Assembly (NCBI GenBank): GCA_963771885.1
Contig: CAVYVF010000003.1
Coordinates: 1 to 30,524, forward strand
Direction of reading: 5' to 3'
Length of the DNA: 30,524 nucleotides
Origin: Candidatus Bathyarchaeota archaeon
GTDB lineage: Archaea; Thermoproteota; Bathyarchaeia; TCS64
The notes beneath the pieces were generated by a model that saw nothing but the letters and a program-made list of their open reading frames with translations, made no database searches and was not told the DNA's origin. Positions 3,596 to 26,423 of this stretch are shown piece by piece; position 1 is the stretch's first letter, and each line of letters begins with the position of its first letter. Both the position numbers and the translations under genes were made by a program.

Positions 3596-4919
3596 ATGGA
3601 TCTTCTGGAGACCTATCATAAGCTAAATCCCAAATCGAGAAGTATGTATGAGAGGGCCTGCAAGAGCCTCCCAAGCGGAATCACGAGGAACGTATTGTAT
3701 ACGCCCCCGTTTCCAATCTATATGGCCCGCGGAGAAAAGTCTCGGCTGTATGATGTAGATGGAAACGAGAGAATCGATTTCAACTTTAATAACACGACGC
3801 TGATACTCGGTCACAATCACCCCAAAGTATTCAGAGCTGCCCGCCAGCAGCATGAGAGGGGAACCGTACTAGGGGCACCCACAGAGGCTGAGGTAGCCCT
3901 AGCCGAGGAGATTCTAAGCAGATTAAACGCTGAGAGGCTCAGGTTTACACCAAGTGGGACCGAGGCTAACATCCAGGCAATCAGACTTGCTAGAAGTTAC
4001 TCGGGTCGAGACATGATCGCGAAGTGCGAAGGCGCCTACCACGGCTCATGGGATACCGTGGACATCAGCGTCGCACCGCCCCTCAGCAAAGCGGGCTCAG
4101 CCAAGGCCCCCCTCTCGGTTCCCCAGAATGAGGGGGTGCCGAGGGGCGTACTTGAAAACACAATTATCATACCATTTAACGACGCCGAGGCAGCTGAGAA
4201 GATCATTAAAGAAGCATAAGAATGAGCTAGCCGCCGTGGTCTTAGAGCCTGTTCAGAGGGACACGCCGCCAGCGCCGGGCTTCCTTGAGGGTCTGAGGGA
4301 GATTACTCAGAGATACGGGGTACTCCTGATCTTTGACGAGGTGATCTCCTTTAGGCTGAGCCCGGGAGGCGCCCAGAAGTATTACGGGGTCAAGCCTGAC
4401 ATCACCTCGATGGGCAAGATCATAGGAGGCGGATTCCCGGTTGGAGCCTACGCCTCATCCGAGGAGGTGATGAAGCCTCTCATGATTCCAAATTCGGAGT
4501 TCCCCAGCGTTGGTCAGGCGAGGCTCGGATTCTCAGGCACCTTCAACGCCCACCCAATCACTATGGCGGCTGGCCTCGCAACGCTGAAGGAGCTGAAGCC
4601 ATCAGTCTATACCCGAATGGATAAAACCGCCGAATCTATGCGTAAGGGACTGGTAAAACTACTCGAGGCTAGGAAGCTACCCTACCAAGTCACTGGGGTT
4701 GGCTCATTCTTCCACATCGACTGGACGAAGGAGAAGGTCACAAACTATAGGTCAGCGGCTACCGAGGATCGGAAGATTAGCCGCGTCTTCTCAACAGAGC
4801 TGATGAATAGGGGGGTTTTCATGTGGGGTCACCCCAATGTTTCAGCGGTCACCACAGCTAATGATGTTCAGTTGGCCCTGGAAGCCGTTGAGAGAAGCCT
4901 CGACTCCATGTTCCCCTAA
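3596..4919 (+). CDS. Class III PLP aminotransferase, glutamate-1-semialdehyde aminomutase-like (frameshift near 4210)
   Basis: SGTEAN, GAYHG, LIFDEVISFR, GKIIGGGFPVGA (PLP lysine) and SGTFN motifs across ORFs 3596..4219 and 4128..4919. Confidence 0.9.
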
Positions 4920-5065: not shown

Positions 5066-6679
5066 TTAGGGAATATTTTGATAGAGTACTTTTCCTCCAA
5101 CAATCGTCATCAGGTTCTTAACCTCCTTCAACTGCTCCCTTGGGATCCTCAATGGGTCCCTGTCGACGACGCATATGTCGGCGAGTTTCCCCGCCTCGAT
5201 GCTTCCCTTGATACCCTCCTCCCAGGAAGCATAGGCTCCATCGATCGAGTATGCTCTAATAGCCTCTAAGGGGGTGATCGCCTCCCTCGAGTAGAGGATC
5301 TGGCCGCTGCTCGTCTTCCTCGTGACTAGGCTGTAGATTCCGAGCCAGGGATTCGGGTCACATATGCTTGCATCGCTGTGTCCCGGGGCCGGTATGCCTT
5401 GATCAATCAGGCTTCTGTGAGGCCACATGTACCGCATCTCATCCTTTCCCCGGTTTTTCAGGTAAGCGTCACCTAGGTCATGGAGGAAACCAGATGCTGA
5501 AGCGTCTATTACCCCTAGTTCCTTCAGCCTCTTCTGAATAGGCGGGGTAACCGCGCAGCAGTGCTCTATCCTGTGGCGGTGATCAGGCCTCGGCTCCTCC
5601 CTCAGCGCGGCCTCAATCGCGTCGAGGGCTCTGTCTATCCCGCGGTCGCCAACCCCGTCTAACCCCACTCGTATCCCCGCCCCGTGCGCCTTCCTGACCC
5701 TCTCCGTGATGTCCTCCTGATCGTACAGGAGTATGCCCGTGTTGTTCGGCTCGCCGACGTAGGGCTTGTAGTAGGCGGCCGTCCTACCGCTTGTGCTGGT
5801 GTCGAAGACCCACTCAGCCGCCGTGACTTTGAGCCACTCGTCCCCGAAGGGCGTCTGGAGACCCATCGCGACAGCGCCCTCAACCATCCCGACGTCTCTT
5901 CCGCTGATGTGGACCGCGGTCCTGACCGGTAGCTTTCCCTCCCTCTTGAGCCTCTGCATCGCCTTGAACTCGTTTGGTGAAACCATGCTGGCGTGTATGC
6001 TTGTTAATCCGAGCTTGAGGCACTCCTGGTATACAATCTGCAGGCCTCGGTAGAACTCGTCCTCAGTGTAGGGGGGTATCTTGTGGTAGACGAGGTCCTT
6101 GGCTGACTCCCTGAGCAGGCCGGTGAGCTCTCCCTTCTCATCGTGCTCGATCTTGCCGTGGTGGGGGTCAGCCGTTTCCCTCGTGATCCCGGCTATGTTT
6201 AGCGCGTGAGTGTTTGCGACTCCGTTATGGCCGTCCCTCCTCTGAATGTATAGCGGGTTATCTGGCGCGGCCTCGTCCAGCTCCTTCAGGGTTGGGTACC
6301 TGCCCATCTTCACATCATCGAGTCTATAGCCGAGGATCCAGTTCCCCGCCGGAGTCTCAGAGGCTTTTCGCCTCACCGCGCCTAGCATCTCCTCGACGCT
6401 CGTAAACATGGGGCCGCAGGCTACTCCTCTAATGAGGTATGCCCCCCAGCTTCCCCCGGGGTGCATGTGGCTGTCGATGAGCCCAGGCAGAACCGTCAGG
6501 CCACCTAGCTCGATTACCTTGGTTCTGGGCCCAATGAATCTCTTTACTTGATTATTCGTTCCAACTTTCAGGATTTTGCCATCTCTTATCGCCACCGCCT
6601 TCGCAATCCGGTTTTGGCCATCCAGAGTGATTACCTTACCACTGAGGAGAGCGATGTCAGCCTGGTTTTCGCCCAACAA
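5066..6679 (-). CDS. Amidohydrolase 3 family, YtcJ-like metal-dependent hydrolase
   Basis: PGLIDSHMH, RDGH, RHRIEHC, HSD, KGSIEAGKLAD. Confidence 0.93.
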   Translation of the reverse strand: MLGENQADIALLSGKVITLDGQNRIAKAVAIRDGKILKVGTNNQVKRFIGPRTKVIELGGLTVLPGLIDSHMHPGGSWGAYLIRGVACGPMFTSVEEMLGAVRRKASETPAGNWILGYRLDDVKMGRYPTLKELDEAAPDNPLYIQRRDGHNGVANTHALNIAGITRETADPHHGKIEHDEKGELTGLLRESAKDLVYHKIPPYTEDEFYRGLQIVYQECLKLGLTSIHASMVSPNEFKAMQRLKREGKLPVRTAVHISGRDVGMVEGAVAMGLQTPFGDEWLKVTAAEWVFDTSTSGRTAAYYKPYVGEPNNTGILLYDQEDITERVRKAHGAGIRVGLDGVGDRGIDRALDAIEAALREEPRPDHRHRIEHCCAVTPPIQKRLKELGVIDASASGFLHDLGDAYLKNRGKDEMRYMWPHRSLIDQGIPAPGHSDASICDPNPWLGIYSLVTRKTSSGQILYSREAITPLEAIRAYSIDGAYASWEEGIKGSIEAGKLADICVVDRDPLRIPREQLKEVKNLMTIVGGKVLYQNIP

Positions 6680-6818
6680 TCTTAGTCAGAGGTCCCTGAA
6701 GCGCATCAATATTTAACAACATTCACTATTAACGCGTGCGCGGAGACACACAGAGTAGGAAATGGATTCAGTAATGAACTTTAAAAAAATACCGAAATAA
6801 TGGTCGTTGCGCCACTAT

Positions 6819-6854
6819 GTTTACATTTTAATACAAATGTATACTATTGTATTC
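6819..6854. promoter_or_regulatory. Operator array of four GTATAC-like hexamers at exact 10-bp period
   Basis: GTTTAC(6819)-attt-TAATAC(6829)-aaat-GTATAC(6839)-tatt-GTATTC(6849), in the divergent spacer upstream of the RHH gene. Confidence 0.7.
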
Positions 6855-6923
6855 TCTAAACTTGACTCTGTTAATAAAGAGTGAGATTAAATATTCGCTT
6901 ATTCATAAATATTATCGATTATC

Positions 6924-7446
6924 TTGACCAAAAAAACGAGTCAGTCAGTAGTTCGAACTCTGAGACTCGACCGGGATCTAAATGATTACCTGGTTCAGGA
7001 GGCCAAGAAGTCAAACATATCCATCTCTGCCCTAGCGTCGGAGATTTTCACATCCTACAGGGATAAGTACCGCTTTGTAGAGAAAATGAATCCTGTCGCT
7101 ATCACGCCGGGAAATCTAGCCCTATTCTTAGAATGCATAAGAGACGAGGACCTGCAACAAATAGCTCCCAAATTAGCTTCGAAGCTGTGCCTCTATCACC
7201 AAGCATGTCTTCGATCCTGGAAATTTCAAGACGGATCTCGACTGGTGCCTTACCAACCTTCTCCCCACATGCCACTGGTTTACATGTAACAGATCGGCTG
7301 AGAGTTACATGATAACCCACAATATGGGTCCAAAGTGGACGACATTCCTTACAAAGTTCCTTTCAAGCCTTATATCCGCGGAAACTGGGAAAACTCCCAT
7401 CGTCGAAGTGGACAATGAGATCATCCTCGTAAAGAAGTGGAACTAG
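6924..7446 (+). CDS. Ribbon-helix-helix regulator with C-terminal NitrOD5/V4R-like domain, paralog 1 (frameshift near 7190)
   Basis: VVRTLRLDRDLNDYLVQEAKKSNISISALASEIF is RHH-like. The shifted frame continues ...DWCLTNLLPTCHWFTCN..YMITHNMGPKWTTFLTKFLSSLISAETGK..* and aligns with 9033..9590. Confidence 0.75.
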
Positions 7447-7489
7447 CGGTTCCCCAACCGTCTGAGCTCATATCCCTATGAAATTATTC

Positions 7490-7505
7490 GTATACATTTG
7501 TAAAC
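7490..7505. promoter_or_regulatory. Operator GTATAC-ATTT-GTAAAC upstream of the microprotein/patB unit
   Basis: The reverse complement of 7489..7507 matches 12309..12327 at 18/19. TATA-like TTTTATAA at about 7527. Confidence 0.7.
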
Positions 7506-7577
7506 ATCCATGATTTATGTTGGAAATTTTATAAAATAACCTGGAAGCCCCGGTGTAACTGATAGTAGGTGATGTTG

Positions 7578-7733
7578 ATGCAAGTGATTGAGGAGGCTAA
7601 AAGGAATTCTTCGGGCACATATCCCCCACCCTTCAGATGTGAGTCGTACTGGATCAAGGCGTGCAACGTAAAGGACGCATCGCTTTGCCTGGAGTGCAGG
7701 GAGAACCTCTACCTCGAGCGAGCCAAGAGCTAG
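7578..7733 (+). CDS. Cys4 microprotein (51 aa), paralog 1, unannotated
   Basis: AGGTGA SD at 7567. MQVIEEAKRNSSGTYPPPFRCESYWIKACNVKDASLCLECRENLYLERAKS*, with the same C-x7-C-x7-C-x2-C motif as 19342..19479. Confidence 0.85.
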   Translation: MQVIEEAKRNSSGTYPPPFRCESYWIKACNVKDASLCLECRENLYLERAKS

Positions 7734-7780
7734 ATAGCCTCTTATCCCGAGAAACTACTTCAAACCGAGTTGAACCTAAG

Positions 7781-8955
7781 ATGATCTATGACTTTGATAC
7801 AGTGATCGATAGAACAAAGTCCAGCTCCGTAAAGTGGAGCTTTAGGAAGGAGAGAACCGGGGTTCCGGACATCCTCCCAATGTGGATAGCCGACATGGAC
7901 TTCGTATGCGCCCCGGAGATCGTTGATGCGCTGAAGGAGCGCGTCGCATTCCCTATCTACGGGTACACGGAGAGGACACCCGGTTATTATAACGGCCTCA
8001 TCAACTGGATGAGTAGGCGACACGGCTGGAACGGAATAAAGAAGGAGTGGATCCTGTTCACGCCCGGCGTCGTCGCGGGATTCAACTTCGCGGTCCAAGC
8101 CTACTCTCATCCCGGGGACAAGATAATCATACAGCCCCCCTGCTACTACCCCTTCTTTGACGCCATCGTCAACAACGGCCGAAGGATAGTCGAAAACCCC
8201 CTCAAGGTCGTAGATGGCGGCTACGTGATGGACTATGAGGACCTTGAGAGCAAGATCGATGGCAGAACGAGGATGATAATACTCTGCAGCCCACATAACC
8301 CGGTTGGCCGCGTCTGGAAAAGAGGGGAGCTTGAGAAACTCGTCGAAGTTTGCGAGAGGAAAGACATCGTCATACTCTCCGATGAGATCCATAACGATCT
8401 GATCATAGGCGACATGAAGCACGTACCGACCGCGACGATCTCCGAAGAGGCTATGAGGAGGACGGTCACGCTCGTGGCGACGAGTAAAACCTTCAACTTG
8501 CAGGCCTCACAAACTCTAACGTAGTAATACCCGACAAGAGGCTGAGAGAAGAGTTCCAGAACGTTGTAGAGAATAACCGCACCAAGAACACGAACATCTT
8601 CGGCATAGTTGCGCAGGAGGCTGCGTATGCGAATGGCGAGCCATGGCTTGAGGCACTCCTAACATATCTAAGGGGGAATTATCAGTACCTTAAGGAGTAC
8701 CTGGCAACGAAGTTGCCCCAACTGAAATTATACCCTCTTGAGGGAACTTATCTCCCCTGGATCGACTGTAGCGCTCTCGGCATGAACGACAAGGAGCTGA
8801 GCGAGTTCATGCTCAAGAAAGCAAAATTGTGGCTGGATGATGGAATACTGTTTGGGTACGGCGGCTCGATGTTCATGAGGCTTAACATTGCGTGTCCCAA
8901 GAGCATTCTACGAGAAGCGCTAGAGAGACTTGAGAAAGCGATAAGTGACTCCTAG
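7781..8955 (+). CDS. patB: MalY/PatB family PLP-dependent C-S lyase (frameshift near 8500)
   Basis: MIYDFDTVIDR, SVKW, PMWIADMDF, LCSPHNPVGRVW, SDEIHND, SKTFNL(AG), EGTYLPWIDC, FMRLNIACP. Confidence 0.92.
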
Positions 8956-9020
8956 AATCCCTGCCTGAGAAGAAGGATGGCTATAACGCCCGATAATTGG
9001 GAGTAACCTGCTTGAACTCC

Positions 9021-9027
9021 TTTTTTT
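9021..9027 (+). terminator. Oligo-T archaeal terminator candidate after patB
   Basis: T7 tract in the convergent spacer. Confidence 0.4.
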
Positions 9028-9032
9028 AGTGA

Positions 9033-9590
9033 CTAAGCCTTAGTGACAACATTACCTGGGCTGTCACCGATTTTTAGGGTTAATTTCTCTGCGTCTGATT
9101 CGATGAAGGCTGGTTGCCCGGTTTCGATTATGATCAGAGACGATATGAAACCTGTCAGGAATCTGCTCCATTTGTCGCCGAGTTCGTGTGTTAGGACATA
9201 GATATTGTTTGAAGCTTGGCATCGGAACCAGCCGGAGGTAGGTAATACTTCTGTTAGGCAGTAGCGTATCGAGTCCTCGGCTTTACGGTTGTTGAAGACA
9301 TATTGGGCATATTTGTGGAACCTCGAGGCTTCCTTGGCTCCAATCTCCCCCAGTTCGGCCTCTGTCAGAAATTCTAGTAAGGAGGATAACGCGTCTTTGT
9401 ACATGGCAACGGGCTTAACGGATTCGTACCTGCTGACGACATCTCTATATGAGTCTAGGATATTGATGGCGTAATCCTGTGTTGATAAATTGGCTTTTTT
9501 TGCTTCATTATTTAGGTGTGCATCTAATCCTTTCTCTAGTCTAATTGCTTTGACCAGCGTGTCTCTATTTCTTTTATCCGACGTGTTCAA
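9033..9590 (-). CDS. Ribbon-helix-helix regulator with NitrOD5/V4R-like domain, paralog 2
   Basis: TLVKAIRLEKGLDAHLNNEAKKANLS; THELGDKWSRFLTGFISSLIIIETG; colinear with 6924..7446. Confidence 0.8.
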   Translation of the reverse strand: MNTSDKRNRDTLVKAIRLEKGLDAHLNNEAKKANLSTQDYAINILDSYRDVVSRYESVKPVAMYKDALSSLLEFLTEAELGEIGAKEASRFHKYAQYVFNNRKAEDSIRYCLTEVLPTSGWFRCQASNNIYVLTHELGDKWSRFLTGFISSLIIIETGQPAFIESDAEKLTLKIGDSPGNVVTKA

Positions 9591-9754
9591 CTAAGGCTCT
9601 ATTGTCAATTACTATTACTTAATTTTTATGATCAGAGATGTGCGCACGGAAGGTATACTTCTTTATAGAAACATGATTCTATACTGGTGGATGTGTATCC
9701 TAAAACTCACTAGAATACGCGCATGGTGCTAGCACGTCTAAACCTTGCATTTAA

Positions 9755-10438
9755 TTATTCTAAATCACCAATCATCTTTCTAAAATAAAAAGCCTCTTTT
9801 TCAGATATGTTTAAAATAGATTTTTCATACTGTTCTTTTAAAATTACTATTTTTAATTTTTCAAAAGATCCATCAAGATCATCAAAACCCCATCCTTTAT
9901 TTATATAATATGTTTTATCATATGAGCGATCATCTCTCATTATTATACATTTATCATATTCATCTTTTAACTTACAATAATTAAATAAAACACTTTGTAA
10001 GAATGAATTTGCATGCGCACGCGAATTAAATAAAATATTTATATCCAAGGGATTTTCTATCCATAATTTACTATGTATTTTTTCTATTTGATTTAGAATA
10101 GATTTAATGGTATTATTATCACTTTCATTGATTTCTTTATTTTTAATTAATAATTTTTCTAGATTCTTATTATCAATACTGACTAAATTTACTTTAACAT
10201 ATCCTTTTTCAGGCTTTTTAGTTTTTTCCTCTGTCTTATTCTTTCTAATTTTTACTGCTTTTCTTGTTTTTTCTGAATTTTTTTCATCGTATGGAACATT
10301 CGCAACTTCACATATTTCTTTTTTATTCTTAAAATGCTCATATATTTCTCTGTTATTTATTTTGCAATTATTAGATATCCTTTTTACAGATGGTGTTTTA
10401 TTATTTTCACTATAATACATCTTAAACAGAATCGACAA
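9755..10438 (-). CDS. Very AT-rich orphan protein with a possible N-terminal HTH
   Basis: Intact 227-aa ORF in extremely AT-rich DNA. KTPSVKRISNNCKINNREIYEHFKNKKEICEVANVP resembles a TetR-like HTH or homing-endonuclease-associated repeat. Confidence 0.6.
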   Translation of the reverse strand: MSILFKMYYSENNKTPSVKRISNNCKINNREIYEHFKNKKEICEVANVPYDEKNSEKTRKAVKIRKNKTEEKTKKPEKGYVKVNLVSIDNKNLEKLLIKNKEINESDNNTIKSILNQIEKIHSKLWIENPLDINILFNSRAHANSFLQSVLFNYCKLKDEYDKCIIMRDDRSYDKTYYINKGWGFDDLDGSFEKLKIVILKEQYEKSILNISEKEAFYFRKMIGDLE

Positions 10439-10902: not shown

Positions 10903-11878
10903 GTGATACTAAACCAATGGTACTCCATTCTTGAATCCTCAGAGGTCGGGACGAAGCCAGTGGGAGTAACGAGGATGGGGGAGAAACTCGTACTCTGGCG
11001 CTCAAAGGGCACCATTGGTTGCTTAAAAGACAGGTGCATCCATAGAGGAGCCGCCCTCAGTGGCGGCAAGACCATTGACAGCGACTTACAATGCCCATTC
11101 CATGGCTTGAGGTATGATTCAACGGGCAAGGTAACGATGATTCCAGCCAACGGAAAGTCGAAACCTGTTCCCAACTACTTCAAAGCTGACAGCTACTTAG
11201 TGCGCGAGGAGCACGGGTTTATTTGGATTTGGTGGGGCTGCGCCAAGAGAAGAGTATCCGCCGATTCCATGGTTCGACGACATCGGCGAAGGCTTCAGCT
11301 TTAGCACGGTGAAGCAGCGATGGACCACCCACTACAGCCGAGCCATCGAGAACCAGTTGGACGTCGCGCACCTGCCATTCGTCCACTCTAACTCAATTGG
11401 CAGAGGGAACAGAACGCTTGTCAACGGACCCTACACAACATTCGACAACGGGGCAATCACAGTATACCCCGATAATGAGGTGGATGAAGATCAGACGCCG
11501 AAAAAGCCTATAGAGATGTCTTCTCCCCCCGGGCGTTACTATATACAGTTCAAGTTCCCGAACGTTTGGCAGAACAGGATCAGTGATGGCAATAGAGTCG
11601 TCGTATCATTCAGCCCTATAGATGGTGAAAATACGATGATGTACCTCAGGTCGTATTGGAAGACGAAGGGCGTTCCCGGGTTAAACTGGTTGACTGGAAT
11701 ATTTTCGGGAATAGGCTCTTGGTATATCGCCGACCAGGATAGGAGAGTGGTTGTCAGTCAGACCCCTAAGAGGGTGGGGGTAGATATCGGTGAGAAACTG
11801 ATTTCGGCTGATCTCCCTATTGCCATCTATCGGCAGGAAAGTGACCGTTTGATCAGGAAAGCTGTTAACGGCTCTTAG
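10903..11878 (+). CDS. Rieske non-heme iron oxygenase alpha subunit, VanA/KshA-like (frameshift near 11240)
   Basis: Rieske motifs DRCIHRGA and QCPFHG; mononuclear-Fe motif ENQLDVAHLPFVH and a downstream DQD. Confidence 0.9.
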
Positions 11879-11991: not shown

Positions 11992-12249
11992 TTATCCGTA
12001 GAATTTGAACTCGATATGCCACAGATACTCTGGTCGCTTCGTCTCCATAAAGGGCTTCATGGTATCATTCATGTGTTCTGCCTCGACCATAATCATGTAG
12101 TGGTACCTGTCACAGGCGGCTCCGTACTGGCCTACGAACTTTACCTTGGCCTTTTCGCAGGCTTTCTTCAGAGTCTCGGCGTATTCCTTTATTCTGGTTT
12201 CGCGTTGAGAGGACGTTCCATCCAGGTCGATGAGATACATCGCTAACAT
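11992..12249 (-). CDS. Small ferredoxin-like fold protein (GYD/DUF3303-like)
   Basis: MLAMYLIDL...KAKVKFVGQYGAACDRYHYMIMVEAE shows the dimeric alpha/beta-barrel pattern; ATG at 12249. Confidence 0.6.
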   Translation of the reverse strand: MLAMYLIDLDGTSSQRETRIKEYAETLKKACEKAKVKFVGQYGAACDRYHYMIMVEAEHMNDTMKPFMETKRPEYLWHIEFKFYG

Positions 12250-12310
12250 CTTCGTCACCAAGCGCTCGGGCGCGCTACCAATTTTCGTTAATTGATCCTA
12301 TAGCGTGTAT

Positions 12311-12326
12311 GTTTACAATTGTATAC
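12311..12326. promoter_or_regulatory. Operator GTTTAC-AATT-GTATAC
   Basis: Near-identical inverted copy of 7490..7505, in a divergent spacer. Confidence 0.7.
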
Positions 12327-12440
12327 GGGGATTGCCTTCGTTCCGATTATCGGTGGCACGAAGGACACTGATGCCCAAGTATGGGGCTTTGGAATAGTTT
12401 TAATCCGCATCGATACAAAGTCGCATCTGAGGCACTGGAA

Positions 12441-13640
12441 ATGCGCCGAACACAACGGATAGCGTCCGCCCTGCTGTTCCTCATGCTAGTCGCTGCGTTG
12501 CCTCCCGTCGCTGCGGAGGAATACTACCCTACATCGGGTTGGCGCACCTCTCCCCCAGAGGCGCAGGGCATGTCCTCGGAGAAGCTGAGGGAGTGGAGCG
12601 ACGAGATACGGGTAAGCGGCACGGCCATAGACGGCATCGTGGTGGTGCGTCACGGATACCTAGTCTGGGAAACCTATCCCAACCCGCTCTTCGGCGCCAC
12701 TGACACCCACCGCCTATACTCCGTCACGAAGAGCTTCACATCCTGCCTCGTCGGCATAGCCATCGATAAGGGCTACATCGACGGCGTCAATCAGACAATG
12801 CTCTCCTTCTTCCCCGAAAGGACGATAGCCAACCTCGACGAGCGCAAGCAACGGATCACCGTCGAGAACCTGCTCATGATGCGCAGCGGGCTACGGTGGG
12901 ACGAGTCGAGCGCCCCATTCACCGACCCCCGAAACGACATCTACCACAAATACTCTACGGGGACGGTCTCCAGTGGAGCCTCGACCTCGAGGCGGTCGGC
13001 GAGCCCGGCGTCACGTGGCACTACAACACTGGGGCAAGCCACATACTCAGCGGCATAGTCACCGCCGCCACTGGCTCATCGACGCTCGACTTCGCCGAGG
13101 AGAACCTCTTCAAGCCACTGGGCATAACCCGCTACGCCTGGTCGGAGGACGGCGCGGGCACGATCATAGGCGGATTCGACCTCCAGCTAAGCCCCCGCGA
13201 CATGGCCAAGTTCGGCTACCTCTACCTACACGGCGGCAGCTGGGACGGGAAACAGATAGTCTCCGAGGGGTGGGTGGAGAGGTCAACGAGCACCCTAACA
13301 AGGCCCACCGCGGCCCTCGGCTATGGCTTACCAGTGGTGGACGACGCCCAGCCAGAACATGTACTCCTGCCGCGGCCTCTACAACCAGATGATATACGTC
13401 CTCCCCGGGCAGGACATCGTCGTCGCTGTGACGGGTGACATGAGGAGCGGGGGCACAGACGACGCGATAGCCGACTACATACTTGCGTCGATAACAGAGT
13501 ATGACCCAGGCACAGAGCCGGCTGGGCAGAGTAATGGTGTACCCGGGTACCCGGTTGAGGCCTTCGCCGCTGGTTTGATCATGGTCATCTTGATCGGCGT
13601 ACAGGCGCGCACGGTTAGACCTAAGCTTCATAACTTGTAA
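12441..13640 (+). CDS. Secreted serine hydrolase (beta-lactamase/AmpC-like family) with a C-terminal PGF-like sorting signal (2 frameshifts)
   Basis: Signal peptide MRRTQRIASALLFLMLVAALPPVAA, SxxK (SVTKS), YxN-like HYNT, C-terminal GVPGYPVEAFAAGLIMVILIG followed by a basic tail. Confidence 0.85.
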
Positions 13641-17363: not shown

Positions 17364-17936
17364 ATGAGTAAAACAAGCCCCTACGAAGTACAGGTACAGA
17401 ACGTCGTCGCCTCGGCCTCCCTCGACCAGAAGATAGACCTACTCGCCATCATGAAGGTGTTTAAGAACGTCGAGTACCGCCCAAAACAATTCCCAGGCCT
17501 AGTGTTCCGACTGAAGAAGCCTAAGACAGCGACCCTCATCTTCGGAAGCGGCAAGATGGTCTGCACGGGGGCGAAGTCCGAGAAGTTGGCGAAAAGCGCC
17601 GTGATACGGGTCGTCAAGGAGTTAAAGACGAATGGGATCATCATCCTCGGGAAACCGAAGATAGTCATACAGAATATGGTCTCCTCCGCAAACCTCCACG
17701 GCAAGATTGACCTAGAGACCGCCTCGGACGTCATGGATAACGTCATGTATGAGCCTGAGCAGTTCCCCGGTTTGATTTACCGGATGCCAGATCCCAAGGT
17801 GGTTATGCTCCTATTCGCTTCGGGGAAGATCGTTATTACCGGTGCAAAGACTGAGGAGCAGGTCCATGAGGCCGCGAAGAAAATCAATTCACTGCTCCTC
17901 GAATATGACCTCCTTTACCAGGGAGACGATCCTTAA
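17364..17936 (+). CDS. tbp: TATA-box-binding protein
   Basis: Two repeats QNVVAS..YRPKQFPGLVFR..LIFGSGKMVCTGAKS and QNMVSS..YEPEQFPGLIYR..LLFASGKIVITGAK. Confidence 0.98.
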   Translation: MSKTSPYEVQVQNVVASASLDQKIDLLAIMKVFKNVEYRPKQFPGLVFRLKKPKTATLIFGSGKMVCTGAKSEKLAKSAVIRVVKELKTNGIIILGKPKIVIQNMVSSANLHGKIDLETASDVMDNVMYEPEQFPGLIYRMPDPKVVMLLFASGKIVITGAKTEEQVHEAAKKINSLLLEYDLLYQGDDP

Positions 17937-18110: not shown

Positions 18111-19121
18111 TTAATTCACAACTCGCAGAGGCGGTTTCCCCTCGCAGACTCTGTAAAGATTCTCAAAAACAAGCGGAGGTACCCGCTTCATTATCTCTGG
18201 CGAAAGAGCACTGCTATGGGGAGTTAAGAGAACATTCTTAGCTCCCAATAATGGGCAGCCCTCTATTTTTGGCTCGTTGACGAATACATCAACGGCTGCG
18301 CCCCTTAAGTGACCAGTTTTCAGAGCCTCAGCCAGTGCATCGACGTCGACTACCTCCCCTCTTGCGGTGTTGATGAGCACACTTCCTCTCTTCATCATGC
18401 GAATTTCTTTTTCCCCGATCATCCCCCGGGTCTGCTTTGTTAATGGTACATTGATACTCAGGACATCGGAGGTTCTGATAATTTCCTCGAATGATTTGTA
18501 GGTGATTGTCAACTCCTTCTCCACTTCTGGTGACAGTCTATTACGATTATTATACTGAATTTGTGTTCCGAACTCCTTTGCGAGCCTAGCGATCTCTCTC
18601 CCTATACTACCGCAGCCGATTATCCCTAGTGTAAGTGATCCGAATTCAAGCGGCATCCTTTCAGGGGCAATTAATTGTTGCTGCACCCAATTTCCTTTCC
18701 GAGTCTCTGTGTTTGCATACTCTATTGACTTTATCAGAAACAGAGCGGCCATAATCGTGTATTCGGCCATTGGTCTAGCAGTAATCCCAGCTGAATTGGC
18801 AACTGGTATCCCCCTCTCTTTAGCTGCTACAAGATCGACATCATCGAAGCCAATTGTATAACATTGAATAAGTTTGAGTTTTTTACCGCTCTCAATAACA
18901 CGCCTAGTCACTGGTGTGAAGTGCAGGGAGTCAGTAAGTAGGAAATCAGCATCTTTCACCAGTTCACAAACTCTATCCTCCGACGCCTTAGGCCCTGCCC
19001 TGATCAGCTCGAAGGTGTTTTTATCGACGAGTTTTCCGAAGAAATTATTAAATGCTTCATCCGGGAATGAGCAAATATCCAAGATTTTGAATTTAACCAT
19101 ACGACACATTCCCCAACTCAT
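18111..19121 (-). CDS. D-2-hydroxyacid dehydrogenase (glyoxylate/hydroxypyruvate reductase-like)
   Basis: GCGSIG, YNNRNR, INTARG, DVFVNEP, TPHS. Confidence 0.92.
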   Translation of the reverse strand: MSWGMCRMVKFKILDICSFPDEAFNNFFGKLVDKNTFELIRAGPKASEDRVCELVKDADFLLTDSLHFTPVTRRVIESGKKLKLIQCYTIGFDDVDLVAAKERGIPVANSAGITARPMAEYTIMAALFLIKSIEYANTETRKGNWVQQQLIAPERMPLEFGSLTLGIIGCGSIGREIARLAKEFGTQIQYNNRNRLSPEVEKELTITYKSFEEIIRTSDVLSINVPLTKQTRGMIGEKEIRMMKRGSVLINTARGEVVDVDALAEALKTGHLRGAAVDVFVNEPKIEGCPLLGAKNVLLTPHSSALSPEIMKRVPPLVFENLYRVCEGKPPLRVVN

Positions 19122-19199
19122 TTTTTTGAGATCCTAGTAACACGAACTAACCTAGAAACCTCAGAAAGCTGAGAAGCGATGATAATATTAATAGTGTTT

Positions 19200-19280
19200 G
19201 TATACAAATGTAATACTTCTTTTAATATGCGCTTTTCACGGGCCGAGAATAAGGTATTCTCCCGTACTACAATTGTATAC
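19200..19280. promoter_or_regulatory. Two inverted TACAWWTGTATAC operators in a divergent promoter
   Basis: GTATACAAATGTA at 19200..19212 and TACAATTGTATAC at 19268..19280, each a few bp upstream of a TATA-like AT box (about 19182-19193 leftward, 19286-19293 rightward). Confidence 0.7.
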
Positions 19281-19341
19281 ATACATTATAAATAAATTTT
19301 CAACTTAATCTCTCAATACCTCTTGAATTGGGGTGAATACA

Positions 19342-19479
19342 ATGTACAAAAATGTCAAAGATGTGATGACTCAGAGGTGTGAGTCGTTCTACATTGGTAG
19401 TTGTAAGATCCAAGATGGGAAAACTTGTTCTGAGTGCAGAAATTACATAGTAAACTCTCAATTTAGAAAGGTTTCTTGA
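19342..19479 (+). CDS. Cys4 microprotein (45 aa), paralog 2, unannotated
   Basis: GGGGTGA SD at 19330. MYKNVKDVMTQRCESFYIGSCKIQDGKTCSECRNYIVNSQFRKVS*. Confidence 0.85.
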   Translation: MYKNVKDVMTQRCESFYIGSCKIQDGKTCSECRNYIVNSQFRKVS

Positions 19480-19504
19480 TGTTGAGCAAGGTGTTTATGA
19501 AACC

Positions 19505-20509
19505 ATGATTCCCCCAACTAAGATAGTGTCTTTTTACTGGGGTCACACCCCTGAACATCAAAAGGCTTGGTTCAAAGACGCGATCCCAAACCTCATAGTG
19601 GACGTAGTTCCTCAAGGTTGCAGCCCCGGAAAGATATGTGAGATGATTTCTGACGCTGACCTGATTCTTCAGGTGCCTGGAACATTTATTTCCCGTGAGA
19701 TGCTTGAGGCCGCTAATAGGGCGAAGCTCGTTCAGTTCATGTCCGTTGGATACGATACTATCGATTTAGCTGCGGCTAAGGACCTCAAGATCCCCGTTGC
19801 GAATAATCCCGGTTTTCCATCGATACCTGTCGCCGAGCACACGATCATGAGCATTCTTGTTTTATTAAAACAGGCATTTTACGGCCATTCTGAACTCTTC
19901 AAAAACAACTGGGTGCAACAAGAGGTCTGCAACGGAAGAATTGGGGAGTTAACATGCAAAACCGTGGGGATTCTCGGATTGGGGCATATCGGCCTTGAGG
20001 TTGCTAAGAGAATCCGACCCTTTGGCTCTAAAATCATCTATAACAAGCGTAACAGGTTGACCAGAGAAACTGAGGAGCAACTTGGCGTAGAGTATGTCAC
20101 GTTTGATGACTTGGTCACAAGGTCAGATATCTTGACCATACACGCTCCACTTACCCCTGAAACGAAAAACATGATCAGCCGCGAACAGATCGCTAGAATG
20201 AAGCAGGGCTCGTACCTCATCAATACCGCCCGCGGGCCTATCGTCGATGAGATTGCCGTCGCCGATGCACTAAGGGAGGGGAAGTTGGCTGGAGCAGCCT
20301 TCGATGTTCCGCGTTATGGTGCGGGAGATGTGCCAAAGACTATCGAGAACTTCAAGGGCTGTAAAAACGTGTTAATCACGCCACATACCTCATCCTCATC
20401 GCCCGAGTCGGAGGAACGCTTTGTACAGGGATTCACGGCGAACGTCGTAAAGACGTTGAATGGTGGAAACCCTGACTTTGTAGTGAATGGGATTTTGAAG
20501 CCGAGATGA
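19505..20509 (+). CDS. D-2-hydroxyacid dehydrogenase family protein
   Basis: GLGHIG, YNKRNR, INTARG, TPHT; atypical DVPRYG where DVFxxEP is usual. Confidence 0.9.
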   Translation: MIPPTKIVSFYWGHTPEHQKAWFKDAIPNLIVDVVPQGCSPGKICEMISDADLILQVPGTFISREMLEAANRAKLVQFMSVGYDTIDLAAAKDLKIPVANNPGFPSIPVAEHTIMSILVLLKQAFYGHSELFKNNWVQQEVCNGRIGELTCKTVGILGLGHIGLEVAKRIRPFGSKIIYNKRNRLTRETEEQLGVEYVTFDDLVTRSDILTIHAPLTPETKNMISREQIARMKQGSYLINTARGPIVDEIAVADALREGKLAGAAFDVPRYGAGDVPKTIENFKGCKNVLITPHTSSSSPESEERFVQGFTANVVKTLNGGNPDFVVNGILKPR

Positions 20510-20576
20510 TGGGTTGAGAGTCTCGAAACATTTTGAGCGACAAAATATCTTGCTGTGGGAGATCTGGTGAGTAATT

Positions 20577-21788
20577 TTGAGCAAGGTGTCAAAGACGGCG
20601 CTTCTCCTTCTCGCTACTATTTGTGTCACATATTTTGTCGAAAATTTCTTTAGAACCGCGGCCTCGGCTCTCACACCGATTCTAATCGAGGAACTATCAA
20701 TCTCGAGGGCCTCTATGGGGTTGTTGATCACCGCTTTTTTCCTGATATATGGCTTCATGCAGTTCCCCGCTGGTCTACTTACCGAGATTTTGGGACCGAA
20801 AAAATCGATTGTCCTCTTCACTGCCTTGACTATTGTGGGTGGCGTGTTATTCTGGGCGAGCTACAGCTACGAGCTTCTCTTCGCGGCGCAGTTCATAATG
20901 GGGATCGGCACGAGCGTCTTCTACCTCAACGCGATAACCTTGCTGTCTAGATGGATTCCCTCTAGTAGACGTGCGACAGCCATCGGAATATTGAGTGCGA
21001 GTAGTGGGATGGGTGCGTTTACGTGCTTCATAGGGTTTCCGCTAGCTATCACGATATGGGGCACGTGGAGAAACCTCTACCTCGTTATGCTTGGGGCTCT
21101 CCTAGTAAATTGGGTCTTCAACTATTTTCTGATTAAGGATAATCCATCCAACACTACATCAGTGATTGGGAGACGTGAGGGCCTATTTCTCTCCTTGAAG
21201 AGGACGTTGGGTGAAAAGGCCCTACACCCTCTTTTCTTCGGTTACGCAATGATGGGTCTTAATTATCTCCTAATTCAATGGGCGAATCAATATCTAATCG
21301 AATCCAAGAGCCTCACTTACGTAGAGGCTGGCCTGGTGACTAGCGTTGGTACTGTGTCTGGGTTTATTGGCTGTATTGCCATGGGGGTGTTTAGCGACAA
21401 GATAAAGAAGCGCAAACTGCCGATCATCGCGTCTCTTACCCTTTACACGGTCTTTTTGGGATGCTTTATTTTCCTGCCTTCTGGATTGCCGGTTGCTTTC
21501 TACGCGTTGAACTGGTTTCTCTTGACCTTTTTCCTTAGTTTCTGGGTGCTCTTTCCCAGTATGGTTGGTGAGGTCGTATCGCGGGCTAAGGCTACGATTG
21601 GTTTCGGGGTTATGAATGGGTTGATGATGATCATCACGAGTTTAGCTACTCCCCTCTATGGTGCCTTGGTTGACTTGACGGGTAGTTTTTTCATTCCGAC
21701 GTTGATCAGTCTAGGTCTAAGTGTTTTTGCCTTGATTATTCTTAATAGGTCTCTATCGGAGACTTACGGGCTTGCTCCCGGCGATTGA
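20577..21788 (+). CDS. Major facilitator superfamily transporter
   Basis: About 12 hydrophobic segments; QFPAGLLTEILGPKK and GVFSDKIKKRK loop motifs; T8 tract after the stop. Confidence 0.92.
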   Translation: MSKVSKTALLLLATICVTYFVENFFRTAASALTPILIEELSISRASMGLLITAFFLIYGFMQFPAGLLTEILGPKKSIVLFTALTIVGGVLFWASYSYELLFAAQFIMGIGTSVFYLNAITLLSRWIPSSRRATAIGILSASSGMGAFTCFIGFPLAITIWGTWRNLYLVMLGALLVNWVFNYFLIKDNPSNTTSVIGRREGLFLSLKRTLGEKALHPLFFGYAMMGLNYLLIQWANQYLIESKSLTYVEAGLVTSVGTVSGFIGCIAMGVFSDKIKKRKLPIIASLTLYTVFLGCFIFLPSGLPVAFYALNWFLLTFFLSFWVLFPSMVGEVVSRAKATIGFGVMNGLMMIITSLATPLYGALVDLTGSFFIPTLISLGLSVFALIILNRSLSETYGLAPGD

Positions 21789-21935: not shown

Positions 21936-23489
21936 ATGACAAAAGAGACGAAGCCCACAGGACCAAATAAGAGACCCCTACTTGCACTCATCATAATCGT
22001 AGCCCTCGCAGGCGCCTCATACTACGCACACCAGACACTAAACCCTCCAATCAAGCCAACAAACTGGCCAACCCAAACCTGGACCACCGCCACAGCGGAG
22101 GCAAACGGCTTCGACTCACAGAAACTAGCCGAAGCCATCACCTCAATGAAAGCTACCCTCAACATACACAGCCTCACCATCACAGGCATCGACGGCGGAC
22201 TCTTCCTCGACGCCTACTTCTACCCATATGACGGCTCCACCTACCACGACTATGCCTCCGTCACAAAAAGCGTGACGACGACCCTCATCGGAATAGCGGC
22301 CGACCAGGGAAAACTCGACCTGGATAAACCGATCCTATTCTACTTCCCGATGCAACGGTGGCAAACCGCGACGCCCGCAAGGAGAATGTCACCGTGCGCC
22401 AGCTAGCAGGAATGACCTCCGGATTACATGCGTCGACTACCCCACTGAGGCGACGCTCGAAGAGATGATGTTGACCCCAGACTGGGTACAGTTGGCGCTA
22501 GAATCGCCCAATGGTAGCCGAGCCGGGCACACGCTTCGCCTACGACAGCCTCGGAATGCACCTGCTCTCCGTCATCCTCGAGAAAGTCACCGGGGTGACT
22601 GAGCTAGAGTACGCTAAACAGGTTTTGTTCACCCCTCTGGGAATAACCGAGGTTTGCTGGCAATCCGACCCGCAGGGCCACACTAGGGGCTGGGGGGACC
22701 TCTGCCTTCAGCCACGCGACGCCGCCAAAGTTGGCCTACTTTTTAGCCACGGTGGCGAATGGGGTGGCAAACAAGTGGTGTCACAGCGGTGGGTATCCCA
22801 GGCGACTAAGAGTCACATCTCGACGAATCGCGGCCAAGACTATGGCTATGGTTGGTGGGTATCGCCGTCCAGTGAAGTCATCCCCTACTATAGCGCTGAG
22901 GGCAGGGGCGGTCAATACATCAGGGTCTACCCGACGCTGAGCATCGTCATTTCAGCGACTGGGGGCGGCGTCAGCATGGGCGACATAGGTCCTAAGCTAG
23001 CGGAGGCGATTACAGAGGGTGGAAAGGCTCTGCCAACCAACCCGATTGGGGCTGAGAGGCTAAAAAGCGCAGTGGTTGAGGTGGGCGCTAAACCTCAACC
23101 GGCGTCTGTAGCTGAGTTACCCGGCTTGGCGGGCGTCGTGTCAGGTAAAACCTACGTCTTCGACTCGAATATTCTGGGTTTGAAATCTATGGTACTTGAG
23201 TTTGACGCTGGCTCTGAGGCGTTCTTTAAACTGGAAAAAGTTGGGGAGTTGGAGCCACGCTTCAGGGGTTGTTGGCCTCGACGGAGTCTATAGGATGAGC
23301 AGTAGCGGTCAGCCTGTGGCTGCAAAGGGAAGTTGGTCGAGTCCCAACGTCTTTATCTTGGACTATGACGAGGGGCCTGGCCTAAACTATCTTCAAATAA
23401 GAAATTCCTCTTTGAGGATGACGTGGTTCGGTTCAATGTTCAGGGATTCGGTGAAATCATCGGAAGAATCTCGCGCGGCAGTTCTTTAA
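21936..23489 (+). CDS. Membrane-anchored serine hydrolase (beta-lactamase-like family), several frameshifts
   Basis: N-terminal TM, WPT..W, ASVTKS, FAYDS, YGYGWW, AEGRGGQYI across ORFs 21936, 22511 and 23196; the 3' end is uncertain. Confidence 0.85.
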
Positions 23490-25594: not shown

Positions 25595-26423
25595 TCAACT
25601 TTTACTATCCTTATCTCTAGGTCGCCCCATAGTCCAGAACCAGGATAGCTCCTTCGCCTGCACCCAATAATATTCGAATAGATCCCTACACCAGCCATGG
25701 AAAACAGGATCCCTTGATCGATAGCCCAGCACATCGACCTCACCATCTCTCTTAGGGAGGGCGAGGACAGCCACCTCCTTCTCTGTCATGTACATCCTCA
25801 CCCTGACCTCGTCAAGGTATCTAATATGCAAGCATCCCTTCCTCCACTGCTCCTCAAAGAAGTCAAGGTGTTCCCTCGGCGTCTCCCTCATCACTTCCAT
25901 GGGAGGAGTATAGTACATGGGTCGATAGCCCTCAGCTTCACCCCCCTCTTCAACTGATTGATTGAGTCGTTTGCATCTCTGGGGCTCGACATTCTGCCGG
26001 GCGAGATAAACCACTCATACTCTTCAGAAGCCCTCCTCGCCCTCGCGATGTTCGCGACAACGTCGAGCAACTCTGTCGTCCTCTCATTGTCTATGAGCTC
26101 TCCGAGCCTGGAGACGAATGGTTGTGGCAGCCAGCGGGTGGAGTGGCTGAGGATGTAGTCACTCTGTTGTGTGAGGAATTCGAATGGAGCTAAAAGCTTG
26201 AGTGCGTTCACTCCAAGCGAGGTTAGGACGTAGTCGCCGGTGGGATCTCTTTGACGAGTGAAATCTGGACTAGCCTCGCAATGTTTCGTGAAGTACCCTG
26301 GGCGGTGAATTCGAGTTTGTTGGCTATCTGGGTGAGGTTCATCGGGCCTTGCTCGAGTGACATCAATATTGCGAGTCGATCATCGTTGGATAACTCGAAT
26401 AGGAGATTGCACAGAGGCTCCAA
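25595..26423 (-). CDS. Winged-helix regulator with DUF1724-like domain, paralog of 1435..2183 (2 frameshifts)
   Basis: LCNLLFELSNDDRLAIL, YILSHS..LPQPFVSRLGEL, FHGWCRDLFEYYW. Confidence 0.85.

Follow-up and report, generated by a model that had tools for sequence, protein, structure and literature searches.

A candidate RHH-V4R regulator clade and its probable palindromic promoter signal in accessory DNA of Bathyarchaeia

In this work, we analysed a 30,524-nt stretch of DNA from a Candidatus Bathyarchaeota archaeon (contig CAVYVF010000003.1 of assembly GCA_963771885.1), hereafter the window, which represents the entire 30.5-kb contig C3 of the genome designated G000. The window bears two genes for ribbon-helix-helix (RHH) proteins, RHH1 and RHH2, several copies of a 16-bp palindrome, and two genes for a microprotein with four cysteines (Cys4). 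The explanation that we tentatively prefer is that the RHH proteins, which appear to carry a V4R-type sensor domain, are ligand-responsive activators of a regulon of shuffled accessory genes, which counts the microprotein among its targets. The GC content of the window (49% vs. 55–58% in four large G000 contigs) marks it as low-GC accessory DNA.

According to this explanation, a clade of RHH-V4R regulators, which has expanded to four genes per genome in two members of the Bathyarchaeia, would bind as RHH dimers to paired TGTWWACA boxes 10 bp apart. The sensor domain would take up a small molecule, and the bound protein would help transcription factor B (TFB) load on a weak TFB recognition element (BRE), turning the promoter on; such help is suggested because the proximal box pair immediately precedes a weak BRE and a TATA box. 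The promoter block would have been shuffled before accessory genes, mostly those for small proteins of 85–113 aa, along with genes for pyridoxal phosphate (PLP) decarboxylases, an aminotransferase, PatB, 2-hydroxyacid dehydrogenases and major facilitator superfamily (MFS) transporters. Because PLP enzymes are found among the targets, an amino acid, an amine or a related aromatic compound might conceivably serve as the ligand.

The survey covered 79 genomes of the order, where G000 is the source genome and the others are likewise G-numbered, while metagenome and genome loci compared with the window are L-numbered. The RHH-centred contexts were drawn from G000, G016 and the loci reached via the microprotein.

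The predicted RHH-V4R regulators

The original prediction described a regulatory module comprising an operator array, RHH1, a palindrome, a Cys4 open reading frame (ORF), patB and a convergent RHH2. This gene order is indeed present in the window, with the following features.

5066..6679, minus strand: Amidohydrolase-3 family gene (Pfam PF07969, E 1e-100), divergent from RHH1; it may also be a target of the 6818 array
6818..6857: array of four TGTWWACA-like boxes with a 10-bp period, upstream of RHH1, between RHH1 and the amidohydrolase gene
6924..7446, plus strand: RHH-V4R paralog 1 (RHH1), tblastn matches in two frames; extra base near 7195
7490..7505: palindrome GTATACATTTGTAAAC, an exact motif match kept in L106 and L107
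7513..7520, plus strand: TATA-like box at the fixed +8 position, predicted from sequence
7578..7733, plus strand: Cys4 microprotein 1, 51 aa, C-x7-C-x7-C-x2-C, from an 11-row alignment; the start may be 7572
7781..8955, plus strand: patB, PatB-family PLP C-S lyase (TIGR04350, E 5.5e-94 on the 5′ part); frameshift near 8496
9033..9590, minus strand: RHH-V4R paralog 2 (RHH2), intact, 185 aa; model pLDDT 87.7, DmpR sensor Z 10.7, NikA/AvtR/Arc profile matches

As a unit, the module is looser than proposed. The motif is not present upstream of RHH2, contig C4 holds a paralog 82% identical to RHH2 with other neighbours and without an adjacent patB, and the DNA downstream of patB is not the same in one related contig; from these comparisons, RHH2 is not a fixed part of the unit. 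The motif, in turn, is also found before other genes.

The N-terminal 55 residues of the regulator are RHH by profile, matching NikA (E 1e-4), AvtR (0.003), MazE7 and Arc on residues 4–56, whereas the Pfam RHH_1 profile is matched weakly by 5 of the 37 members (best E 0.0012). The model, which is based on an alignment of 37 homologs (pLDDT 87.7), places helices at 20–32 and 37–55 and leaves the N-terminal strand unformed in the monomer. The C-terminal domain is modelled as mixed alpha/beta with four strands, and residues 51–181 superpose on the DmpR phenol sensor 6iy8 (Z 10.7, rmsd 3.6, 129 aligned) and on PoxR (Z 9.8), with BcsD, Bet3, VirS and H-NOX also matching. Foldseek returned Bet3, DmpR, H-NOX, BcsD, PoxR and MopR, in that order (best E 2e-3), such that the top structural matches all came from the V4R/H-NOX fold group. 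As modelled, this is a one-component regulator family with an N-terminal RHH domain and a C-terminal sensor of the DmpR/V4R-type fold, which agrees with the one-component RHH family predicted originally. Profile searches of the 37 members gave no match to Pfam V4R, nor to the NitrOD5 (PF11537) and MetOD1 profiles at E 0.1.

The proposed likeness to NitrOD5/V4R proteins therefore stands for V4R and fails for NitrOD5, because the latter is described, in the available text of the source, as a death-domain-like family of ~100 aa (PMC5847659), which is at odds with an alpha/beta domain matching the V4R/H-NOX group. The same text presents MetOD1 of methanogens as HNOB/V4R-like with three conserved cysteines (PMC5847659), and what the family described here has in common with both is that they are lineage-specific, multi-copy archaeal domains. 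DmpR, PoxR and MopR have the same fold as the sensor half of RHH-V4R at ~10% identity; their sensor is fused to an AAA+ sigma-54 activator, whereas here it is fused to RHH and the three-cysteine cluster is absent. This cluster of V4R domains has a role in zinc binding. It is formed by three conserved cysteines, as the available part of PMC5847659 has it; in the family described here, at most two cysteines are conserved (C111 and C124), none of them in the last two strands. The conservation of Cys and His that was noted for the two window proteins holds family-wide for H135, which together with W141 is found in 25 of 27 broad-family rows, but C124 is clade-specific (14/14 subfamily rows vs. 6/27 broad-family rows); C111 is present in 12 of the 14 subfamily rows.

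The RHH domain is common to this family and the regulators NikA, Arc, CopG and AvtR, and the boxes recur at a regular interval, as they do where RHH dimers bind cooperatively. An RHH domain is joined to a ligand domain in NikR as well. Unlike these regulators, the proteins considered here would combine RHH with a V4R-type sensor and serve a genome-wide, island-borne regulon. Open-access literature listings and abstracts contained no description of an RHH and V4R-type fusion, of the motif or of the microprotein. In the literature searched, the pairing is undescribed, and by analogy it would act like a one-component regulator with promoter geometry of the TFB-RF1 type.

The broad family is found in 37 of the 79 genomes, often beside TFB genes, and the Atlas contains unnamed archaeal clusters resembling it. 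The window proteins form a distinct clade (support 100/100), represented by four genes each in G000 and G016 and by a remnant in G014; no member of it turned up among 400 further genomes of the phylum.

The palindrome, its proposed regulon and promoter geometry

The palindrome GTWTACAWWTGTAWAC consists of two TGTWWACA boxes 10 bp apart and occurs in the window six times at no more than two mismatches, vs. 0.09 expected. Fourteen sites in G000 are within one mismatch of the window pattern. When oriented promoters were counted once and the C4 copy of the 12311 site was excluded, G000 contained 17, which face 10 genes for small proteins of 85–113 aa (two of them DUF3303 by Pfam, most without an assignment), two for PLP enzymes (a decarboxylase and a class-III aminotransferase), two for MFS transporters (one by Pfam, one by inspection), one for a 2-hydroxyacid dehydrogenase and two for the microprotein. 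Target kinds in G016 are alike, and site pairs 21 or 30–31 bp apart often form two-way promoters there. Judged by this distribution of sites, the motif is a genome-wide regulon signal. Further sites in the window and their targets are as follows.

11992..12261, minus strand: 89-aa small protein of a family found in 59/79 genomes, a typical motif target
12311..12326: palindrome GTTTACAATTGTATAC, a motif match facing the 89-aa gene
18111..19121, minus strand: 2-hydroxyacid dehydrogenase (Pfam PF02826), faced by the 19200 site
19186..19294: bidirectional promoter with two inverted 31-nt arms, 19186–19216 and 19264–19294, 84% complementary
19342..19479, plus strand: Cys4 microprotein 2, 45 aa, by coding signal and alignment
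19505..20509, plus strand: 2-hydroxyacid dehydrogenase (Pfam PF02826/PF00389)
20577..21788, plus strand: MFS transporter (Pfam PF07690)

Each 31-nt arm is made of a palindrome, 7 bp and a TATA-like box, so that the pair faces outward. The repetition of operator, microprotein and enzyme noted originally is borne out by the unit at 19265–21788 (dehydrogenase and MFS transporter), whose ortholog in L097 has an intact divergent RHH gene.

We consider it likely, from comparisons of loci and genomes, that an RHH protein of this clade binds the motif. With the relaxed pattern GHNTACAHDTGTANDC, there are 14 sites in G000, 15 in G016, three in G012 and 0–2 in each of the other 76 genomes, where the G000 and G016 counts are partly circular since the pattern was derived from their sites. 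The motif is amplified only in G000 and G016, the sole two of the 79 genomes with intact clade genes. A less circular test used the best-scoring locus per genome of one small-target family matched in 59 genomes: in the 30 loci examined, the motif precedes the gene in 3/3 loci of G000, G016 and G012 vs. 0/27 from other genomes. All four G000 paralogs are located near sites, at 44, 1543, 1624 and 6939 bp, distances reached by 1%, 10%, 10% and 23% of random small-contig positions, respectively. RHH-motif pairs are divergent in L097 and G016:C13. In L101 and G014, the RHH gene is cut to its C-terminal half, the remnant starting exactly at a (CG)n run (L101 2380–2640; G014:C116), and the motif is also gone; a single deletion may explain both losses. 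In a separate clade of the broad family, the stretch from TATA to the start codon of the gene itself contains two or three TGTGTTCA boxes with a 10-bp period in 16/16 loci, which amount to one independent case because all belong to one clade. Tandems of the TGTGTTCA type, noticed in three loci prior to the test, occur in 17 of 46 family loci vs. a shuffle rate of 0.4%.

Apart from the circularity mentioned, several observations weigh against this assignment or the mode of action proposed. If only the window pattern is used, at two mismatches, genomes are poorly resolved (G016 25 vs. control 12, G012 20 vs. 7, G009 9 vs. 1). The association is confined to two genomes of one genus; G012 (95% complete) has three sites at two promoters, and no RHH gene was found there by two profiles; the 89-aa gene has an ortholog in G016 that is not preceded by the motif, despite the RHH genes of that genome. 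No array is present at the own promoters of RHH2 and three other paralogs, and a TFB gene is nearby in 0/10 subfamily loci. A second TATA candidate, TTTTATAA at 7527–7534, has a purine-rich BRE. Moreover, a second palindrome class, CTATACAWWTGTATAG and relatives (G000:C23:527710 and 528705; L043, L056), with the same 10-bp core, other outer bases and a TATA-like box near +16, is present genus-wide (six genomes) between an Lrp-like gene, a transporter gene and a glnA-like gene; the Lrp-like and glnA labels are what we take these neighbours to be from their sequences.

An alternative is another binder, an Lrp/AsnC or FilR1-like winged-helix regulator, with RHH genes only sharing the same islands. 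The motif pairs of G012, where RHH was not detected, would fit such a regulator, as would the TACA-WW-TGTA core flanking the Lrp-like gene and glnA genus-wide and an Lrp-like ORF ~600 bp from the C23 site. Against it, the Lrp/glnA sites differ in outer bases and have the TATA-like box near +16 rather than +8, the motif is missing in front of the same small genes in those members of the genus that have these sites, and the second RHH clade has boxes related to the motif. The winged-helix family is found in 52 of the 79 genomes, its subfamilies not being separated, and mostly without the motif, a distribution that disfavours a FilR1-like protein as the binder. We regard this alternative as unlikely. 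FilR1/HVO_A0261-like regulators are encoded in the window at 1435–2178 and 25891–26423, with 11 matches in G000.

As to the mode of action of the RHH-V4R proteins, the promoter geometry is informative. At 33 gene-facing sites (the G016 promoters among them being partly copies of each other), seven bases (consensus ATCCATG) come after the palindrome, and then an A/T run, ATTWAT, with an A/T fraction of 0.88–1.0 at +8..+13, where TATA boxes are predicted. Six A/T begin at +8 in 10 of 16 G000 promoters, in no more than 6/16 at any other offset and, on the far side of the motif, in no more than 3/16 at any offset. The motif ends 7 bp before the TATA-like box, across a purine-poor BRE: the 7-bp gap contains 3.25 purines in 16 motif promoters vs. 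4.9 in 22 tRNA promoters (those of 36 with a clear TATA; p 2.4e-4). TFB-recruiting activation is recognised by a site that immediately precedes a weak BRE and TATA, as far as the available text of PMC5937170 goes; there, TFB-RF1 (PF1088) of Pyrococcus furiosus has its palindrome in the same position. The TFB-RF1 motif differs from the palindrome studied here, so that the likeness is one of promoter geometry and no homology is claimed. Activation rather than repression appears rather probable from this arrangement, and the polarity implied by the term operator in the original prediction was probably wrong.

The same regulator and motif could nevertheless repress, with RHH dimers beside the BRE blocking TFB until a ligand releases them. 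RHH proteins are mostly repressors in the accessible portion of PMC5569661, which also reports that AvtR, an RHH protein, can activate and repress; the motif adjoins the BRE, with its final two bases extending into that element; and the TFB-linked clade has its related boxes downstream of TATA and ahead of the start codon, a repressing position. Blocking of the BRE is also conceivable in view of a second TATA candidate, TTTTATAA, downstream of the 7490 palindrome. What opposes repression is the fixed distance of the site upstream of a BRE-TATA element with a purine-poor BRE, which is the pattern of TFB-recruiting activators in the part of PMC5937170 cited above. On balance, repression seems improbable.

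The broad family is linked to TFB in another way, by gene neighbourhood. A TFB gene is present within ~1.5-kb flanks of 22/37 broad loci vs. 0/42 control loci. In the separate clade with TGTGTTCA boxes, which belongs to another genus (L003, L004, L010, L069, L072, L073, L075–L082, L086, L088), a TFB gene adjoins in 16/16, with eIF5A downstream in the three inspected; 6 of the 21 other broad-family loci also adjoin TFB genes. A wider, quite speculative proposal, which we hold to be improbable, is that RHH-V4R proteins are an undescribed archaeal family of ligand-gated transcription factors acting at the TFB level. Some clades would control adjoining spare TFB genes, whereas the clade of the window would recruit TFB to a mobile promoter block made of boxes, a weak BRE and TATA; genome shuffling would place this block before newly gained island genes and join them in one regulon. 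The microprotein, produced first in some of these operons, would then bind metal and exert feedback on the regulator in trans.

Some observations on the targets may be added. The small-protein family designated A7 comprises paralogs of 85–113 aa on contigs C1, C10, C12, C13 and C23 of G000 and at 11992–12261 of the window, occurs in 59/79 genomes and has tandem two-domain versions on C10; it gave no Pfam or PDB match. It might adopt a dimeric alpha-beta barrel, to judge from the DUF3303 and YdhR matches of other targets. On G016:C28 and C20 (L113, L119), a PLP decarboxylase and a QueG/reductive-dehalogenase-like Fe-S protein are encoded on either side of a two-way motif promoter; in L113, a GNAT acetyltransferase accompanies the decarboxylase. 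CG runs flank several G000 motif promoters.

The Cys4 microprotein and PatB

The pattern C-x7-C-x7-C-x2-C is invariant in the 11-row alignment of the microprotein, and the differences among 17 distinct cores fall on third (636), first (271) and second (203) codon positions. As its sequences indicate, the microprotein is a real, new and selected gene family. It was found in 4 of the 79 genomes, all in the genus, and in 11 of the 12 metagenome loci returned, L108 being dropped for want of the four-Cys pattern; this gives 18 loci in total, several of them near-identical. A match to a viral contig (L096) was a chance one on the opposite strand of a phage gene, and weak genome matches in G003, G017 and G040 disappeared with a better profile. 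Searches gave no match in Pfam (11 rows) or PDB, PHROG matches only at E >= 0.04 in single rows, and Atlas values < 0.9; the model has a pLDDT of 57.8. The C-x2-F/Y-x2-G-x-C part bears what we take to be a likeness to CCCH zinc fingers, with no support from Pfam.

In all but one of the 18 loci (17/18), the microprotein gene leads its unit; the gene that comes next encodes a dehydrogenase (9), a small protein (5), PatB (3) or a decarboxylase (1). The motif precedes 6 of 17 testable loci (in G016:C13, its position was measured at the operon start), and 11 are without it. In leaders of microproteins lacking the palindrome, there is a conserved 18-nt element, GGCTCTGCCTAGGGTTTC (L035:1427, L102:9904, L103:1317, L104:1934, L105:1629), possibly a site of another regulator or an RNA element. 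RHH is adjacent to the microprotein in the window, L097, L106 and G016:C13, and as a remnant in L101 and G014; the arrangement is tandem in the window and L106, divergent in L097, and divergent with two genes between in G016:C13. A missing RHH neighbour elsewhere proves little because many contigs are only 1–5 kb long. The predicted co-occurrence of RHH clade, motif and microprotein is thus seen in shared genomes and some shared loci, while the motif and the microprotein are separable.

The original prediction assigned the microprotein the role of a dedicated partner tuning the regulator, e.g., by metal handover or sensing, in a cysteine/sulfur response. The microprotein, present in only four of 79 genomes, is encoded in all three that bear a clade gene or its remnant, RHH and microprotein are neighbours in three different arrangements, and the clade keeps C111, C124 and H135 without the C-terminal cysteines of V4R zinc sites, all of which would suit a partner. 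The motif-free majority of testable loci speaks against it, as do G005 (92% complete), which has two microproteins and in which neither RHH nor motif was found, the intact microprotein beside the RHH remnants of L101 and G014, the 15 of 17 G000 motif promoters without a microprotein (2/17 lead to one) and the variety of downstream genes. PatB is encoded in 28 of the 79 genomes, and neither the motif nor the microprotein is present at any of the 14 other patB loci examined; since, in addition, only 3 of 18 microprotein loci precede patB, the cysteine link is local, and sulfur sensing via PatB finds no support. This makes the partner model rather doubtful. In the activator explanation preferred here, the microprotein is probably one target, a small metal-binding product of some operons of the regulon, and not an obligatory cofactor; given its repeated closeness to RHH in three arrangements, a partner role is conceivable but less simple.

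Other window features and significance

The 6818 array has no TATA-like box at the fixed +8 distance seen at other sites, and the region 6805–7002 is covered by one related contig with 9 differences. Related contigs from three runs were compared at the frameshifts. The extra base at 7195 of RHH1 is absent in 4 of 4 related contigs spanning that position; the base missing at 8496 of patB is present in one related contig and is not shown in one other contig covering the position. Since these genes are intact in relatives, both shifts are probably errors of this assembly. Single-base shifts split many genes of the window (the aminotransferase at 3596–4919, the Rieske gene at 10903–11878, the serine hydrolases at 12381–13640 and 21936–23489), the pattern expected of uncorrected assembly indels. 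A very AT-rich ORF of 227 aa at 9755–10438 lies between RHH2 and the split Rieske-type gene, and contig C4 bears a near copy of this neighbourhood without the ORF. The TATA-binding protein (TBP) is also encoded in the window, at 17364–17936.

Bathyarchaeia are abundant sediment archaea, and no regulon described for them turned up in open-access literature listings and abstracts. The analysis offers a testable regulon, defined by a named clade of proteins, a site of 16 bp and 17 candidate promoters within G000, for which a mode of action is predicted. It would be unusual, if true, for an RHH protein to activate from a position upstream of the BRE. In addition, several unannotated small-protein families and the new Cys4 microprotein are grouped under one signal, which may give a lead to their function.

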